Of a DNA stretch of 64,000 bases, positions 10,110 to 56,741 are shown in pieces; position 1 is the first letter of the stretch, and each line of letters starts with the position of its first letter. Below the pieces are notes generated by a model. That model saw nothing but the letters and a program-made list of their open reading frames with translations. It had not been told where the DNA came from and did no database searches. Source of the DNA: Mustelus asterias (lineage: Eukaryota); contig NC_135815.1 in NCBI RefSeq assembly GCF_964213995.1, forward strand, positions 8,370,001-8,434,000, written 5' to 3'. Both the position numbers and the translations under genes were made by a program.

Positions 10110-10534
10110 CTTTTCATTATCCATCTATCGTCCTTTCTACCCTATCTCTCTATCTTCACTTTTCATTATCCATCTATCGCTCTCTCTACTCCATCTCTCT
10201 ATCTTCACTTTTCATTATCCATCTATCGCTCTCTCTACTCCATCTCTCTATCTTCACTTTTCATTATCCATCTATCGCTCTCTCTACTCCATCTCTCTAT
10301 CTTCACTTTTCATTATCCATCTATCGCTCTCTCTACTCCATCTCTCTATCTTCACTTTTCATTATCCATCTATCGCTCTCTCTACTCCATCTCTCTATCT
10401 TCACTTTTCATTATCCATCTATCGCTCTCTCTACTCCATCTCTCTATCTTCACTTTTCATTATCCATCTATCGCTCTCTCTACTCCATCTCTCTATCTTC
10501 ACTTTTCATTATCCATCTATCGCTCTCTCTACTC
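10110..10534. repeat. 49-bp pyrimidine-rich minisatellite (continues at 11547-11625)
   Basis: ttttcattatccatctatcgctctctctactccatctctctatcttcac, about 8.5 copies. Confidence 0.9.
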
Positions 10535-10536
10535 TC

Positions 10537-11547
10537 TACCGCAGGGTTCAGTGTTGGGGCCACAGCTGTTCTCTTTATATATTAACGATCTAGATGACGG
10601 GACTGGGAGCATTCTGGCCAAGTTTGCCGATGATACAAAGATAGGTGGAGGGGCAGGTAGTATTGAGGAGGTGGGGAGGCTGCAGAAAGATTTAGACAGT
10701 TTAGGAGAGTGGTCCAAGAAGTGGCTGATGAAATTCAACGTGGGCAAGTGCGAGGTCGTGCACTTTGGAAAAAAGAATAGAGGCATGGACTATTTTCTAA
10801 ACGGTGACAAAATTCATAATGCTAAAGTGCAAAGGGACTTGGGAGTCCTAGTCCAGGATTCTCTAAAGGTAAACTTGCAGGTTGAGTCCGTAATTAAGAA
10901 AGCAAATGTAATGTTGTCATTTATCTCAAGAGGCTTGGAATACAAAAGCAGGGATGTACTTCTGAGGCTTTATAAAGCACTGGTTAGGCCCCATTTGGAG
11001 TACTGTGAGCAATTTTGGGCCCCACACCTCAGGAAGGACATACTGGCACTGGAGCGGGTCCAGCGGAGATTCACACGGATGATCCCAGGAATGGTAGGCC
11101 TGACATACGATGAACGTCTGAGGATCGTGGGATTATATTCATTGGAGTTTAGGAGGTTGAGGGGAGATCTGATAGAAACTTACAAGATAATGAACGGCTT
11201 AGATAGGATGGACGTAGGGAAGTTGTTTCCATTAACAGGGGAGACTAGGACGCGGGGGCACAGCCTTAGAATAAAAGGGAGTCACTTTAGAACAGAGATG
11301 AGGAGAAATTTCTTCAGCCAGAGAGTGGTGGGTCTGTGGAATTCATTGCCACAGAGGGCTGTGGAGGCCGAGACGTTGAGCGTCTTCAAGACAGAAATTG
11401 ATAAATTCTTGATTTCTCGAGGAATTAAGGGCTATGGGGAGAGAGCGGGTAAATGGAGTTGAAATCAACCATGATTGAATGGTGGAGTGGACTCGATGGG
11501 CCGAATGGCCTTACTTCCGCTCCTCTGTCTTATGGTCTTATGGTCTT
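10537..11547 (+). mobile_element. Young 5'-truncated CR1 LINE inserted in a minisatellite
   Basis: Open frame PQGSVLGP...KFADD...RPHLEYC to a stop at 11462; (TCTTATGG)n tail. Confidence 0.9.
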
Positions 11548-17367: not shown

Positions 17368-18019
17368 CTACAATACAAGCAACAGAAATACAGATCATCC
17401 CACAGCTGCTTATTAAACTGGAATTCTGAATTCACGGTGGCCCATTTGGACCACTCTCGACAGCAGGAAAATATACACAAATGACGTTTTTCTTTCTCAA
17501 CATAACTTATGCATAAACTGCAGTGACATTCTGACCAGCCAAACGGCAACTTAAAACATCGGACACCCGAGAAACACAAATACGCTATAAATAAAAGGTG
17601 AGGAAAAGGAGAATTCTTTTGCAGCAACTACAAAAGCCGGACAGGATGAGCACAGTAATTGAACGGACAATGTTGTACACAGTTACACGTGGCAAGGTTG
17701 GATTCGACCCAGTGTGAAATACTGTCGTCAGCAGCTCAGAGGCTAACAGGTTCATTGGGTTGTCACTGGGATTTCAGGTATAAAGTGTAAAGCTTCAAGT
17801 TACGTCCATTTGAACTGTTAACAACCCACCCCCCCTACTGCCCCGCACCCCCCCACCCCCCACCCCCAACCTCAGGGGAACATAACAGATTCTGTCCCAT
17901 CAGCATCAGGTTGTGTCTGGGTGATCAGCTCGAAAGGCAAGGTCAGCGACCCTCTTTCTGTCTGCGCAATACGCCATTCCACCAAAGAACAGGGACTTGC
18001 AATTACGCCGTGCGTTTCA

Positions 18020-18563
18020 GAATGGAATACTGTGTGCAGTTCTGGTCACCCTATTATAGAAAGGATATTATTAAACTAGAAAGAGTGCAGAAAAGATTTA
18101 CTCGGATGCTACCGGGACTTGAAGGTTTGAGTTATAAGGAGAGGCTGGATAGACTGGGACTTTTTTCTCTGGAGCGTAGGAGGCTGAGGGGTGACCTTAT
18201 AGAGGTCTATAAAATAATGAGGGGCACAGATCAGCTCGATAGTCAATATCTTTTCCCAAAGGTAGGGGAGTCTAAAATTAGAGGGCATAGGTTTAAGGTG
18301 AGAGATACAAAAGAGTTCAGAGAGGCAATTTTTTCACTCAGAGGGTGGCGAGTGTCTGGAACGAGTTGCCAGAGGTAGTAGTAGAGGCGGATACAATTCT
18401 GTCTTTTAAAAAGCATTTAGACAGTTACATGGGTACGATGGGTGTAAAGGGATATGGGCCAAACGCAGGCAATTGGGACTAGCTTAGTGGTAAAAACAAA
18501 GGGCGGCATGGACAAGTTGGGTTGAAGGGCCTGTTTCCATGCTGTAAACCTCTTTGACTCTAT
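18020..18563 (+). mobile_element. CR1 3' fragment within the putative ARFGEF3 3' UTR
   Basis: EYCVQFWSPYYRKD...LERRRLRGDLIEVYK; 3' end gggcctgtttccatgctgtaaacctc. Confidence 0.85.
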
Positions 18564-50877: not shown

Positions 50878-51632
50878 CATAGAAACATCGAAACTAGGAA
50901 CAGGAGGAGGCCATTCGGCCCTTCAGGCCTGATCCACCATTCATTTTGACCATGGCGGATCACCAAATTCAATGTCCTGATCCCCCTTCCTCACATATTC
51001 CATGATCCCTTTCGCCCCAAGAGCTATATCTAATTTCTTCTTGAAATCAGACAGCATTTTGGCTTCAACTACTTTCTGTGGGAGTGAATTCCACACATTC
51101 ACCACTCTCTGGATGAAGAAATTTCTCCTCACCTCAGTTCTAAAAGGTTTACCCCTTATCCTCAAACTATGACCCCTAGTTCTGGACCCCTCCACCATCG
51201 GGAACATTCTTTCTGAATCTACCCTGTCTAACCCTGTCAAAATTTTAAAAGTTTCTATAAGATCCCCTCTCACTCTTCACTCCAGTGAATATAATCCTAA
51301 CCGACTTAGTCACTCCTCATACGACAGACCTGCCATCCCAGGAATCAGCCTGGTAAACTTCACGGCGCTCCCTCTATAGCAAGGACATCCTTCCTCAGAT
51401 AAGGGCACCAAAACTGCCCACAGTACTTGAGATGTGGCCTCATCAATGCCCTGAACAGTTGCAGCAAAATATCCCTATCTCTATACTCTCACTATGAAGA
51501 TCAACATACCATTTGCCTTCTTTACTGCCTGCTGTACCTGCGTGCTTACTTACAGCGACTGATGCACGAGGACTCCTAGGTCTCGTTGAGTATCCACCTC
51601 TCTCAATTTACACCCATTCAAGTAATAATCTG
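50878..51632 (-). mobile_element. CR1 3' fragment
   Basis: RGDLIETFKILTGLDRV...FFIQRVVNVWNSLP on -; tail near 50880. Confidence 0.8.
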
Positions 51633-51950: not shown

Positions 51951-52506
51951 CATATGTTCATAAGATATGGGAGCAGAATTAGGCCATTCAGCCCATCGAA
52001 TCTGTTCCGCCATTCGATCATGGCTGATATGCTCCTCATCCCCATTTTCCTGCCTTCTCCCCATAACCCTCCAACCCCATCACCAATTAAAAATCTGTCT
52101 AACGCCTCCTTAAATTTACTCACTGTCCCAGCATCCACCGCACTTTGGGGTAGCGAATTCCACAGATTCACAACCCTTTGGGAGAAGTAGTTTCTCCTCA
52201 ACTCTGTTTTAAATTTGCTACCTCTTATCCTAAGACTATGACCTCTCGTCCTAGAATGCCCCACAAGAGGAAGCATCCGCTCCATGTCTACTTTATCCAT
52301 ACCTTTTATCATCTTGTATACCTCAATTTGGTCTCCCCTCATTCTTCTAAATTCCAGAGAGTATCGGCCTCAACTGTTCAATCTCTCTCCATACGACAAA
52401 CCCCTCATCTCGGGAATCAATCTAGTGAACCTCCTCTGAACTGCCTCCAATGTCACTGCATCTTTCCTCAAACACAGGGACCAAAACTTTGCACAATACT
52501 CCAGAT
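51951..52506 (-). mobile_element. CR1 3' fragment joined head-to-head with the full-length CR1
   Basis: RGDQIEVYKMIKG...FSQRVVNLWNSLP; tail ...ctcccatatcttatgaacatatg. Confidence 0.8.
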
Positions 52507-52763
52507 ATTGGATCGTAAAGTGAAAACTAGAAGTGGGCAGCAAAGGAGTCTGGGAAGGGTTTTTATTTTAACTTTAAAAGTCAGTTACCTGGGAGGTTCC
52601 CCCTCAGTAGTAGTTTTTTTTTCTCTCGGGCCCCTAGCCCTATAAATTGGTGCAGAGGAGATACCCGATCCTCTACACTGGTAGAGGATCCCACCCTTCC
52701 ATCCTCCTCTAACCTAATTATAAGTGTGGGGAAGTTTTTTGTTTTCTTTTTTTCTTGCTGGTA

Positions 52764-53693
52764 ATGGCTTCAGGGATGGCAGTTCAGGCAGTATGCTGCA
52801 TCTCCTGTGGGATGTATGTGGTGAGGAAATCCAGTAGTGTTTCAGGAGATTTTAGTTGTAAGAAGTGCATTAGATTGCAGCTTCTGGAGGAGCGTGTAAA
52901 GGAGCTGGAGGGGGAGGTAGAGGAACTCCGCATAATTCGGGAGGCGGAGGTGGAAGTTGATAGGAGTTATAGAGAAATAGTAACTCCTAGAAATGAGGCT
53001 TGGGTCAATGCCAGGAGGAGGGGTAAGAAGCAATCGGGAAGACAATCCCCTGGGGCGGTTCCCCTCCATAATAGGTTTTCGGTGCTGGAGGCTACAGTTG
53101 AGGAGGAATCAACTGAGCATAGAGAGCAGATCTCTGGGGGTGAGCCGAGTGAGAAAGCTCAGGTGGTTAGGGGCTGTAAAAGACTGGGCCTTGTGATTGG
53201 GGACTCCACAATTAAGGGGACAGATAGGAGGGTCGGAACTAAAGGTAGGGACTCAGGGTTGGTGTGTTGCCTACCAGGGGCTGGGGTCCGGGATGTGTCT
53301 GACAGGGTATTCAGGACTCTTAGGGGGGAGGGAGATAAACCACAAGTTATTGTACATGTGGGGACACACGACATAGGGAGGATAGGGGAAGGGGATATTA
53401 GGCAGGGATTTATGGAGTTGGGGTGGAAACTAAAGGCCAAGACTGACAGAGTGGTTATCTCTGGACTCTTGCCTGTACCACGGGATAGTTTAGAGAGGAA
53501 TAGGGAGAGGGAAGGTTTGAATTCATGGCTGAGGGGATGGTGCAGGAGGGAGGGGTTCAGGTACTTAAGCAATTGGGGCTCGTACTGGGGAAGGTGTGAC
53601 CTCTATGAGAAGGATGGTCTACACCTTAATCAGAAGGGGACCAATATCCTGGGGGGTAAATTTGCTAAGGCCATGCAGGGAGGTTTAAACTGA
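52764..53693 (+). CDS. CR1 ORF1p: zinc finger, leucine zipper and SGNH esterase-like domain
   Basis: CISC...CKKC, heptad LLEERVKELEGEVEEL, and VIGDS / VHVGTHD / DGLH blocks. First ATG at 52764. Confidence 0.88.
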   Translation: MASGMAVQAVCCISCGMYVVRKSSSVSGDFSCKKCIRLQLLEERVKELEGEVEELRIIREAEVEVDRSYREIVTPRNEAWVNARRRGKKQSGRQSPGAVPLHNRFSVLEATVEEESTEHREQISGGEPSEKAQVVRGCKRLGLVIGDSTIKGTDRRVGTKGRDSGLVCCLPGAGVRDVSDRVFRTLRGEGDKPQVIVHVGTHDIGRIGEGDIRQGFMELGWKLKAKTDRVVISGLLPVPRDSLERNREREGLNSWLRGWCRREGFRYLSNWGSYWGRCDLYEKDGLHLNQKGTNILGGKFAKAMQGGLN

Positions 53694-53743
53694 TTCGGGG
53701 GGGGGGAGGGATCCTGAGTAGTGGGGCTGAAAGTGAGGGATGC

Positions 53744-56563
53744 ATGGATGGGGACTGCAATGCACGGCATTGCAGAGGTGGGGTGGAGCAGGGTTTGAAA
53801 TGTGTATACTTCAATGCCAGGAGTATTCGCAATAAAGTGGGTGAACTTGCAGCGTGGATCAGTACCTGGGACTTCGATGTTGTGGCTATTTCAGAGACAT
53901 GGATAGAGCAGGGGCAGGAATGGATGCTGCAGGTCCCGGGGTTCAAATGTTTTAGTCGAAGTAGGGAAGGAGGTAGAAGAGGGGGAGGGGTAGCATTATT
54001 GGTCAGAGATTGTATCACAGTGTCAGAGAGGAGGTTTGATGAGGACTTATCTGTTGAGGTAGTATGGGCGGAGATTAGAAATAGGAGAGGAGAGGTCACC
54101 CTGTTGGGAGTCTTTTATAGACCTCCTAAAAGTTCTAGAGAGGTTGAGGAAAGGATTGCGGAGTCAATCCTGCTTAGGAGTGAAAGTAATAGGGCAATTG
54201 TTATGGGGGATTTTAACTTGACTAATATTGACTGGAATTGTTATAGCTCTAGCTCGTTAGAGGGGTCAGTTTTTGTTCAAAGCGTGCAGGAAGGTTTTTT
54301 GACTCAGTATGTAGACAGGCCAACTAGAGGTGAGGCTATATTGGATCTGGTGCTGGGAAATGAGCCAGACCAGGTGCTAGACTTGGAAGTTGGTGTGCAT
54401 TTTGGTGATAGTGACCACAATTCGGTTACGTTCACCTTAGTGATGGAAAGGGATAGGCATGAACCTCGGGCCAGTGGTTTTAGCTGGGGGAAGGGTAATT
54501 ATGAGGCTATTAGGAGAGAATTAGGAAACATAGGTTGGACTAGGAGATTACAGGGACTGGGAACGTCTGACATGTGGAGTTTTTTCAAGGAGCAGCTACT
54601 GCGAGTCTGTGATAGGTATGTCCCTGTCAGGCAAGGAGGAATTGGTAGGGCTAGGGAACCGTGGTGCACCAAAAAAGTTTCTTTGTTGGTTAAAAAGAAA
54701 AAGGAGGCTTATGTTCGGATGAGACGTGAGCACTCGGGTAGTGCACTAGAAAGCTTTAGATTGGCTAAGAGGGAGTTGAAGAGCGAGCTTAGAAGGGCTA
54801 AAAGGGGACATGAGAAGACTTTGGCGGATAGGGTTAAAGAGAATCCTAAGGCGTTCTATAGGTATGTCAAGAACAGAAGGTTGGTTAGGGCAAGTTTAGG
54901 GCCAGTTATAGATGGCAGAGGGAAGTTATGTGTGGAACCGGAGGAGATTGGTGAAGCATTGAACCAATATTTCTCTTCGGTGTTCACGCAAGGGGACATG
55001 AATATAGCTGAGGAGGACACTGGGTTGCAAGGGAGTAGAATAGACAGTATTACAGTTGATAAGGAGGATGTGCAGGATATTCTGGAGGGTCTGAAAATAG
55101 ATAAATCCCCTGGTCCGGATGGGATTTATCCAAGGATTCTCTGGGAGGCAAGAGAAGTGATTGCAGCGCCTCTGGCTCTGATCTTCAGGTCGTCGTTGGC
55201 CTCTGGTATAGTACCAGAAGATTGGAGGTTAGCGAATGTTGTCCCATTGTTTAAGAAGGGGAACAGAGACTTCCCCGGGAATTATAGACCGGTGAGTCTC
55301 ACTTCTGTTGTCGGCAAGATGTTGGAAAAAATTATAAGGGATAGGATTTATAGTTATTTGGAGAGTAATGAATTGATAGGTGATAGTCAGCATGGTTTTG
55401 TGGCAGGTAGGTCGTGCCTTACTAACCTTATTGAGTTTTTTGAGAAAGTGACCAAGGAGGTGGATGGGGGCAAGGCAGTGGACGTGATATATATGGATTT
55501 TAGTAAGGCGTTTGATAAGGTTCACCATGGTAGGCTTCTGCAGAAAATGCAGATGTATGGGATTGGGGGTGATCTAGGAAATTGGATCAGGAATTGGCTA
55601 GCGGATAGGAAACAGAGGGTGGTGGTTGATAGTAAATATTCATCATGGAGTGCGGTTACAAGTGGTGTACCTCAGGGATCTGTTTTGGGGCCACTGCTGT
55701 TTGTAATATTTATTAATGATCTGGATGAGGGTATAGTTGGGTGGATTAGCAAATTTGCTGATGACACCAAAGTCGGTGGTGTGGTAGACAGTGAGGAAGG
55801 GTGTCGTAGTCTGCAGGAAGACTTAGACAGGTTGCAAAGTTGGGCCGAGAGGTGGCGGATGGAGTTTAATGCGGAGAAGTGTGAGGTAATTCACTTTGGT
55901 AGGAATAACAGTTGTGTTGAGTATAGGGCTAACGGGAGGACTTTGAATAGTGTGGAGGAGCAGAGGGATCTAGGTGTATGTGTGCATAGATCCCTGAAAG
56001 TTGGGAATCAAGTAGATAAGGTTGTTAAGAAGGCATATGGTGTCTTGGCGTTTATTGGTAGGGGGATTGAATTTAGGAGTCGTAGCGTTATGTTGCAACT
56101 GTACACAACTCTGGTGCGGCCGCACTTGGAGTACTGTGTGCAGTTCTGGTCCCCACATTACAGGAAGGATGTGGAGGCTTTGGAGAGGGTGCAGAGGAGG
56201 TTTACCAGGATGTTGCCTGGTATGGAGGGGAGATCCTATGAGGAGAGGCTGAGGGATTTGGGATTGTTTTCGCTGGAAAGGCGGCGGCTAAGAGGGGATC
56301 TTATTGAAACATATAAGATGATTAGAGGTTTAGATAGGGTGGATAGTGATAGCCTTTTTCCTCTGATGGAGAAATCCAGCACGAGGGGGCATGGCTTTAA
56401 ATTGAGGGGGGGTAGTTATAGAACCGATGTCAGGGGTAGGTTCTTTACCCAGAGGGTGGTGAGGGATTGGAATGCCCTGCCAGCATCAGTAGTAAATGCG
56501 CCTAGTTTGGGGGCGTTTAAGAGATCCGTAGATAGGTTCATGGACGAAAAGAAATTGGTTTAG
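53744..56563 (+). CDS. CR1 ORF2p: AP endonuclease plus reverse transcriptase
   Basis: YFNARSIRNK, ISETW, YRPP, MGDFN, ILDLV, SDHN (APE); NYRPVSLTS, MDFSKAFD, GVPQGSVLGP, KFADD (RT). The frame is open from 53669. Confidence 0.95.
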   Translation: MDGDCNARHCRGGVEQGLKCVYFNARSIRNKVGELAAWISTWDFDVVAISETWIEQGQEWMLQVPGFKCFSRSREGGRRGGGVALLVRDCITVSERRFDEDLSVEVVWAEIRNRRGEVTLLGVFYRPPKSSREVEERIAESILLRSESNRAIVMGDFNLTNIDWNCYSSSSLEGSVFVQSVQEGFLTQYVDRPTRGEAILDLVLGNEPDQVLDLEVGVHFGDSDHNSVTFTLVMERDRHEPRASGFSWGKGNYEAIRRELGNIGWTRRLQGLGTSDMWSFFKEQLLRVCDRYVPVRQGGIGRAREPWCTKKVSLLVKKKKEAYVRMRREHSGSALESFRLAKRELKSELRRAKRGHEKTLADRVKENPKAFYRYVKNRRLVRASLGPVIDGRGKLCVEPEEIGEALNQYFSSVFTQGDMNIAEEDTGLQGSRIDSITVDKEDVQDILEGLKIDKSPGPDGIYPRILWEAREVIAAPLALIFRSSLASGIVPEDWRLANVVPLFKKGNRDFPGNYRPVSLTSVVGKMLEKIIRDRIYSYLESNELIGDSQHGFVAGRSCLTNLIEFFEKVTKEVDGGKAVDVIYMDFSKAFDKVHHGRLLQKMQMYGIGGDLGNWIRNWLADRKQRVVVDSKYSSWSAVTSGVPQGSVLGPLLFVIFINDLDEGIVGWISKFADDTKVGGVVDSEEGCRSLQEDLDRLQSWAERWRMEFNAEKCEVIHFGRNNSCVEYRANGRTLNSVEEQRDLGVCVHRSLKVGNQVDKVVKKAYGVLAFIGRGIEFRSRSVMLQLYTTLVRPHLEYCVQFWSPHYRKDVEALERVQRRFTRMLPGMEGRSYEERLRDLGLFSLERRRLRGDLIETYKMIRGLDRVDSDSLFPLMEKSSTRGHGFKLRGGSYRTDVRGRFFTQRVVRDWNALPASVVNAPSLGAFKRSVDRFMDEKKLV

Positions 56564-56741
56564 GTTGGAGGGTCACAGTTTTTTTTTTAACTGGTCGGTG
56601 CAACATCGTGGGCCGAAGGGCCTGTTCTGCGCTGTAATGTTCTATGTTCTATGTTCTATAAATCAGCCAGGATCTCATTGAATGGCAGCACAGGATGGAA
56701 GGGATGAATGGCCTCCTCCTGTTCCTGTGGGTTTTCAGTAC

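Follow-up and report, generated by a model that had tools for sequence, protein, structure and literature searches.

A candidate programmed −1 frameshift signal at the ORF1–ORF2 junction of an esterase-type CR1 retrotransposon of Mustelus asterias

An intact CR1 element with overlapping reading frames

The window analysed here, a stretch of 64,000 nucleotides from Mustelus asterias (contig NC_135815.1, positions 8,370,001 to 8,434,000), holds a young, intact CR1 long interspersed nuclear element (LINE) at about 52.5–56.66 kb, whose two open reading frames (ORFs) are very probably linked by a programmed −1 ribosomal frameshift. All features given below lie on the forward strand and are numbered within the window. 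ORF1 (52764–53693) encodes 309 aa from the ATG at 52764, or 305 aa from a second ATG at 52776. Its translation carries a CxxC-x16-CxxC motif at the N-terminus, residues 168–292 match the SGNH/GDSL esterase domain (PF13472, E 1e-7), and the C-terminal end is Leu-Asn-stop. The heptamer T_TTA_AAC lies in the ORF1 register at 53684–53690 and adjoins the ORF1 stop at 53691–53693, which is TGA in the window and TAA or TAG in other lineages. The ORF2 frame (53669–56563, 964 codons) begins after a TAA at 53666–53668, overlaps ORF1 by 25 nt in the −1 phase, and encodes an APE endonuclease at about 53807–54418 and a reverse transcriptase at about 55256–55918 (PF03372, PF14529, PF00078). A preliminary description of this DNA had reported the heptamer, the TGA next to it, an ORF2 open from 53669, the 25-nt overlap and the −1 phase, all of which we found as claimed. 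In the window TTTAAAC turns up about once per 10,000 positions and heptamers of the X_XXY_YYZ form about three times per 1,000, and T_TTA_AAC at 53684–53690 is the sole X_XXY_YYZ heptamer in the ORF1 register across both ORFs.

A divergent linker (53694–53806), in which the −1 (ORF2) frame is the only open frame, separates the ORF1 stop from the endonuclease. It contains a G10-A-GGG tract at 53697–53710, a candidate stimulator with a conserved core of GGGGG at 53701–53705, two further nucleotides and GGG at 53708–53710. The first AUGs past the ORF1 stop lie at 53740–53746: that at 53740 belongs to the +1 frame and so lies outside ORF2, and that at 53744 is in the ORF2 frame with a T at −3. The 3′ untranslated region (UTR, 56564–56659) terminates in 3.3 copies of a 7-nt repeat and has no poly(A). 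Judged by its domain layout, its 3′ end and its named relatives, the element has the layout of a vertebrate CR1 with a type IVB ORF1. Available portions of PMC4120745 place esterase ORF1s in type IVB, CR1 subgroup 7, and for vertebrate CR1 with an esterase ORF1 the excerpts of that paper and of PMC13343379 give the same zinc-finger-like N-terminus and esterase in ORF1, an APE-RT ORF2, and short terminal repeats in place of poly(A). The nearest named ORF1 proteins come from sharks and rays. There are also about 20 truncated CR1 3′ fragments of other lineages in the window (including 10533–11411, 17911–18431, 51028–51630 and 52088–52507), none of which retains an ORF1 junction.

The heptamer and the −1 phase are conserved among CR1 copies

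A first look at the species' own genome (3.68 Gb) yielded more than 40,000 ORF1 candidates. We queried this genome with ORF1 C-terminal stretches, stripped of their last six residues, from the window and seven diverged relatives; two of the queries gave nothing. The top 19–30 loci were taken for each of the six answering queries, together with 20 hand-picked from one list. In all, three protein searches of the same genome at strict cut-offs came back empty, the two just mentioned among them, and a search at the DNA level gave no hits, the repeat being too abundant. A metagenome scan added 22 loci at 26–49% identity. We kept 177 of 192 sequences, the 15 dropped all being pieces from the metagenome scan that do not extend past the junction. 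As the slip site we took whichever stretch matched best no more than 12 nt from where ORF1 should end, a procedure by which an exact heptamer would arise by chance in well under 1% of cases.

TTTAAAC stands at the ORF1 end in 157 of the 170 own-genome copies, with a stop directly behind it in 152, and in all 14 lineage representatives. The endonuclease start was located in 156 own-genome copies; 124 of these have ORF2 in the −1 phase, and 16 fall in each of the other two phases. In the young family of the window 26 of 33 copies are in phase. The distance from stop to endonuclease differs between lineages, with modal values of 116, 128, 131, 140, 149 and 176 nt in six multi-copy lineages, 137, 146 and 257 nt in single loci, and 104 nt in three loci. 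All ten lengths equal 2 modulo 3, an outcome with a chance of 1 in 59,000 for free and independent lengths, an independence that is not full. Both heptamer and phase are thus conserved in the way the preliminary description had asked to see. Linkers from different lineages align at mostly 24–62%. The exceptions are L133, which has a length of 168 nt and an expanded G-run, and L111, a decayed copy that has lost its stop. Three single copies (L117, L124, L044) read ORF1 and ORF2 in the same frame because of an indel close to the junction, probably through decay.

Among the seven metagenome loci, heptamer and stop are present in six; five of these reach the endonuclease, and all five are in the −1 phase. 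Their ORF1 tails are 23–37% identical to the shark-type tails, and we refer to these loci as amniote-type because the tails resemble named bird and reptile proteins. The heptamer is kept in relatives with only about 30% ORF1 identity. The signal at the junction is real and ancient, and it is kept at the nucleotide level.

The length of the G-run behind the stop varies from 9 to 16 G, and it is G10 in 24 of 33 copies of the window's family. No indel was found over 53200–54400 in contigs from three public runs, two of which may be the window DNA's own source. Given the G10 of the family copies and these contigs, the G-run of the window is not an assembly error, a concern that had been raised earlier. 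A run of this kind is slippage-prone, and judged by consensus TTTAAA looks like a variant TATA box and CTAG like a 3′ splice site, features that might suit a signal acting on DNA or on the transcript, whether an internal promoter, a splice acceptor or polymerase slippage, from which an ORF2-only or a fused mRNA would arise. We regard such a signal as barely credible. Transcripts from a promoter would depend on an AUG further downstream, and the phase would be left unfixed; a splice acceptor would lack its AG in the TAA and TGA lineages, the G-run is located past the ORF1 stop, and the public-run contigs, which cannot show transcripts, contain neither a joint nor an indel.

Codon choice at the end of ORF1 is constrained

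We compared codons in one real copy per lineage, giving 14 representatives. The sequence TTTAAACT is invariant in 14/14. The residue before Leu-Asn varies (G, S, C, A or D), and its codon always ends in T. The Leu and Asn codons do not vary in any of the 14. As a control we took 14 other residues that are invariant, from the ORF1 tail and the endonuclease start (13 and 12 sequences), and none of them keeps a single codon. Were the heptamer no more than a conserved Leu-Asn protein end and the overlap incidental, ORF2 could be reached by ordinary reinitiation or leaky scanning at the AUG at 53744, which is found in 24 of the 25 modal-length copies of the window's family and would yield a complete endonuclease. 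This explanation seems to us highly improbable. TTA and AAC are never swapped for synonymous codons, though in the element only 12% of the codons for Leu are TTA and 21% of those for Asn are AAC; the out-of-frame ATG at 53740, the nearest AUG at 49 nt past the ORF1 stop, precedes the one at 53744; and the latter, whose conservation the preliminary description had wished to see examined, is not conserved, having no counterpart in four lineages and lying at other positions elsewhere.

The same constraint can be followed in proteins. A Leu-Asn C-terminus occurs in 27 of 35 near ORF1 relatives and in 60 of 150 distant cluster representatives, among them named proteins of snapping and painted turtles, a snake, two lizards, a swallow, sharks and rays. 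The residue before Leu permits a T-ending codon in 27/27 (P 0.03) and 58/60 (P 0.007) of these. Residues with no T-ending codon (E, Q, K, M, W) precede Leu in 0/27 and 2/60, as against 16 and 16 one place earlier. A terminal Asn is kept in 76 of the 150 distant relatives, with SN, EN, KN and FN among the other endings. Nine distant representatives (P0085, P0095, P0101, P0105, P0106, P0107, P0116, P0140, P0171) end in Gln-Gly-Asn; these protein ends would fit a G_GGA_AAC heptamer. A search of viral and prokaryote contigs and plasmids for the DNA behind the Gln-Gly-Asn proteins gave nothing relevant, and the full junction motif was absent from viral contigs. A scan of longer proteins for natural in-frame ORF1–ORF2 fusions returned two unrelated or partial matches, which is weak evidence.

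Three database entries that contain CR1 ORF1 sequence are filed under other names. P0011, a CR1 ORF1 with 58% identity on a contig of 4.2 kb, bears the name of an SGNH hydrolase from Pseudomonas aeruginosa and is probably host contamination. P0028 and P0195 carry CR1 ORF1 sequence within a sawfish 40S ribosomal protein S24 isoform and an elephant shark NLR protein, which would be due either to capture of an exon or to an error in annotation.

The linker is open in one frame and often lacks a start codon

In modal-length copies of the six multi-copy lineages, stops in the −1 frame of the linker were found in 0/25, 3/18, 1/45, 1/8, 1/11 and 3/12, while both other frames contain stops in every such copy. 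Stops between heptamer and APE domain, which would speak against a fusion, are therefore uncommon, and the linker is open in the −1 frame alone. Upstream, the −1 frame of the shark-type lineages is usually closed by a stop 5 codons before the heptamer. In four lineages no in-frame ATG occurs between heptamer and endonuclease (18/18, 8/8, 10/11 and 12/12 modal-length copies), and the first Met mostly lies 17–121 codons inside the endonuclease. With no AUG, a linker open only in the −1 frame and closure upstream, entry into ORF2 must in these lineages occur at or after the heptamer without an AUG there.

A linear G box follows the heptamer at a fixed distance

Downstream of the heptamer eight G positions are invariant in 14/14 representatives: GGGGG at +11 to +15 and GGG at +18 to +20. 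Three of the eight are wobble positions of the ORF2 frame, where the background frequency of GGG among Gly codons is 41%. In the 170 own-genome copies GGGGG-NN-GGG is exact in 126 and has at most one mismatch in 162. The G box is thus a linear motif, 10 nt past the heptamer, at a fixed spacer and with no structure found around it. The preliminary description had placed a G tract 6 nt past the heptamer. That is correct for the window and does not extend to a conserved element: the G10 is specific to the family, its long run is an upstream extension of the G box only, and what is shared is the motif at 10 nt.

A G-quadruplex had been put forward as the stimulator. According to the excerpts of PMC3919603, the quadruplexes described as stimulators so far contain four G3 tracts and work best at a spacer of 6–8 nt. 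Four G3 tracts with loops of 1–7 nt were found in 0/14 lineages, and as a general stimulator the quadruplex was rejected. A two-tier quadruplex pattern is possible in 9/14 lineages, with a predicted fold in 6/14, the window's family included.

The G box and a C-rich element of the 5′ UTR pair strongly in the window's family (−37 kcal/mol), and pairing was seen in four other groups, with one central position mismatched in three of the four. The G box is nevertheless kept where the C-rich element is missing, in the 149-nt lineage and in copies whose 5′ UTR is of another kind. A functional pairing between the two is at most a possibility.

The 5′ UTR element itself (52654–52710 in the window) consists of a 7-bp outer stem, a C-rich internal loop and a 10-bp hairpin, with a fold z of −3.47. 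This arrangement, with CTCTAACC behind the hairpin, is common to five CR1 groups (the window, L061, L066, L147, L139 and L152) and was located upstream of 36 loci in these groups. The sequence of the hairpin differs between families and its pairing is kept; fold z reaches −4.7 to −5.7 in two groups and is weak in two. At E ≤ 1 the element has no Rfam match, and the junction motif does not depend on it. L002 and L004 combine the same young ORF1 with a different 5′ UTR of tandem monomers of about 49 nt, which implies 5′ UTR exchange within one family.

A model for ORF2 expression and the points against it

On the sequence evidence we consider it highly probable that heptamer, adjacent stop and G box form a programmed −1 frameshift cassette that yields an ORF1–ORF2 fusion. 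The Gag-Pol-like fusion suggested in the preliminary description is well supported to this extent, since heptamer, phase and open linker are all kept. Most ribosomes would stop at the ORF1 stop and release the ORF1 protein. A minority would pause with tRNA-Leu on UUA and tRNA-Asn on AAC, owing to slow termination and to the G box near the mRNA entry channel; the paused tRNAs would re-pair on UUU and AAA, and reading would continue in the ORF2 frame. The predicted product has 309 + 957 = 1,266 residues (1,262 from the second ATG). Tandem slippage predicts GGLN-LIR at the junction, along with a smaller share of GGLK-LIR, and GGFK is not expected. Of the two junction peptides proposed earlier, GGLN-LIR therefore stands and the GGFK form falls. 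The outcome would be a high ratio of ORF1 protein to polymerase, and a polymerase tied to the ORF1 protein.

Several observations weigh against this model. Among own-genome copies, the phase is wrong in 32 of 156 and the heptamer is not exact in 13 of 170, and in the young family 7 of 33 copies are out of phase through the length of the G-run. We read the out-of-phase and heptamer-less copies as decay after insertion. The lineages share ancestry and therefore do not amount to 14 independent tests. Of 111 distant ORF1 relatives that reach the C-terminus, 43 have an ending other than LN or GN; not every esterase-type ORF1 therefore carries the signal. Local hairpins were rejected as stimulators, the folds being no better than those of shuffles (z −0.23 and +0.59). 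A classic pseudoknot or hairpin 5–9 nt downstream was sought by folding without an explicit pseudoknot model, and no shared local or long-range fold appeared. Pairing of the G box with the 3′ end of the element or elsewhere was likewise discarded, as the best duplexes are differently placed in 25 sequences and none is shared at the 3′ end. Finally, start codons are available in part of the sample. The window's family, as described above, and the 131-nt lineage (42/45) have an in-frame ATG in the linker, four of the six amniote-type loci (L091, L092, L095, L097) have one two nt past the stop, and the shark-type copy L147 has a TAATG stop-start.

These start codons bear on termination-reinitiation, in which the ribosome would restart within a few bases in the −1 frame, positioned by heptamer and G box, either independently of AUG, as has been suggested for L1, or at an AUG close by, as in SART1. 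The portions available of PMC5972666 and PMC5009743 propose reinitiation for these two elements, and a restart fixed near the stop would likewise keep phase and open linker. We nevertheless judge it unlikely. It leaves unexplained an exact X_XXY_YYZ heptamer in slip register before the stop, and it has to contend with the four lineages that have no AUG before the endonuclease. Within the amniote-type group the stop-adjacent ATG is missing in L093 and L098. The UGGGA of termination upstream ribosome-binding sites occurs at no shared place; it is absent in 6/13 representatives, the window's family included, and a stretch of 120 nt holds no copy of it in that family or in five of the amniote-type loci.

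Returning to the frameshift model, we take a protein-bound stimulator as the lead, because no conserved hairpin or long-range partner was found; that the G box acts through a bound protein is speculative and the least certain step. A combination of termination pausing with a protein on the G box is favoured in view of the arterivirus-like linear motif and the stop beside the slip site. More tentatively, and with real doubt that the whole would hold, esterase-type CR1 elements from sharks to birds might all make a Gag-Pol-like fusion by a structure-free, protein-switched −1 frameshift, in which a host G-run-binding protein or the ORF1 protein would bind the G box, a G-rich counterpart of the C-rich arterivirus signal, host or element would tune transposition at the ribosome, and distant relatives would use G_GGA_AAC.

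The translation of ORF2 in bicistronic LINEs has been explained mainly for L1 and SART1, and CR1 is a dominant LINE of birds, reptiles and sharks. If the model is true, the CR1 polymerase is an esterase-endonuclease-RT fusion and annotated CR1 ORF2 starts are wrong. Engineered CR1 constructs would then need an intact junction, and a vertebrate transposon could come under the control of regulators that counter frameshifting in viruses. The cassette spans 27 nt, and its G box may be a new kind of stimulator.

Comparison with known frameshift and reinitiation systems

A full-text literature search, with the original chicken and turtle CR1 papers outside its coverage, found no paper linking CR1 to ribosomal frameshifting. 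In the sections available, frameshift in the translational sense is not mentioned in a 2026 CR1 survey (PMC13343379), an ORF1 survey (PMC4120745) or a chicken CR1 paper (PMC2734521), nor do those sections of the two surveys describe the junction cassette; the accessible text of PMC4255032 and PMC6609765 uses the term only for decay. The excerpts of a 2016 review of frameshifting (PMC5009743) list U_UUA_AAC and G_GGA_AAC among the most shifty heptamers, attribute mammalian LINE ORF2 to unusual initiation and do not mention CR1. According to passages of PMC4737148 and PMC5009743, some plant viruses shift frame more often when a stop adjoins their slip site.

The CR1 junction resembles retroviral gag-pol and coronavirus ORF1a/1b signals in its U_UUA_AAC and register, and in that an ORF for a structural or RNA-binding protein is fused to a polymerase ORF at a low ratio. 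Retroviral and coronavirus signals use a pseudoknot or hairpin 5–8 nt downstream. The CR1 junction differs in that no structure was found, a stop lies directly past the heptamer, and a linear G box follows at 10 nt. In the arterivirus porcine reproductive and respiratory syndrome virus (PRRSV) the spacer is 10 nt. Its C-rich CCCANCUCC is bound by PCBP and nsp1-beta, as given in excerpts of PMC8915115, and like the CR1 box it is a short split homopolymer motif with no downstream structure. The CR1 box is G-rich whereas that of PRRSV is C-rich, and CR1 is a cellular retrotransposon, for whose box a binding protein is hypothetical.

Among LINEs, mammalian L1 and silkworm SART1 (accessible parts of PMC5972666) share with CR1 a bicistronic RNA and a low level of ORF2 product after ORF1. 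Per the same excerpts, the two ORFs of L1 are 63 nt apart and those of SART1 meet at a UAAUG stop-start, whereas in CR1 they overlap, with a heptamer in slip register, and an AUG is often lacking. The precedent for frameshifting in a LINE comes from Dictyostelium TRE5-A and TRE3-A, non-LTR elements of the APE type, for which a review legend (PMC5911963) states that ORF2 needs a −1 frameshift. These elements differ from CR1 in belonging to another LINE clade and another host. They are not known to have a G box. The candidate cassette of CR1 is best read as a programmed −1 frameshift signal in a vertebrate LINE.

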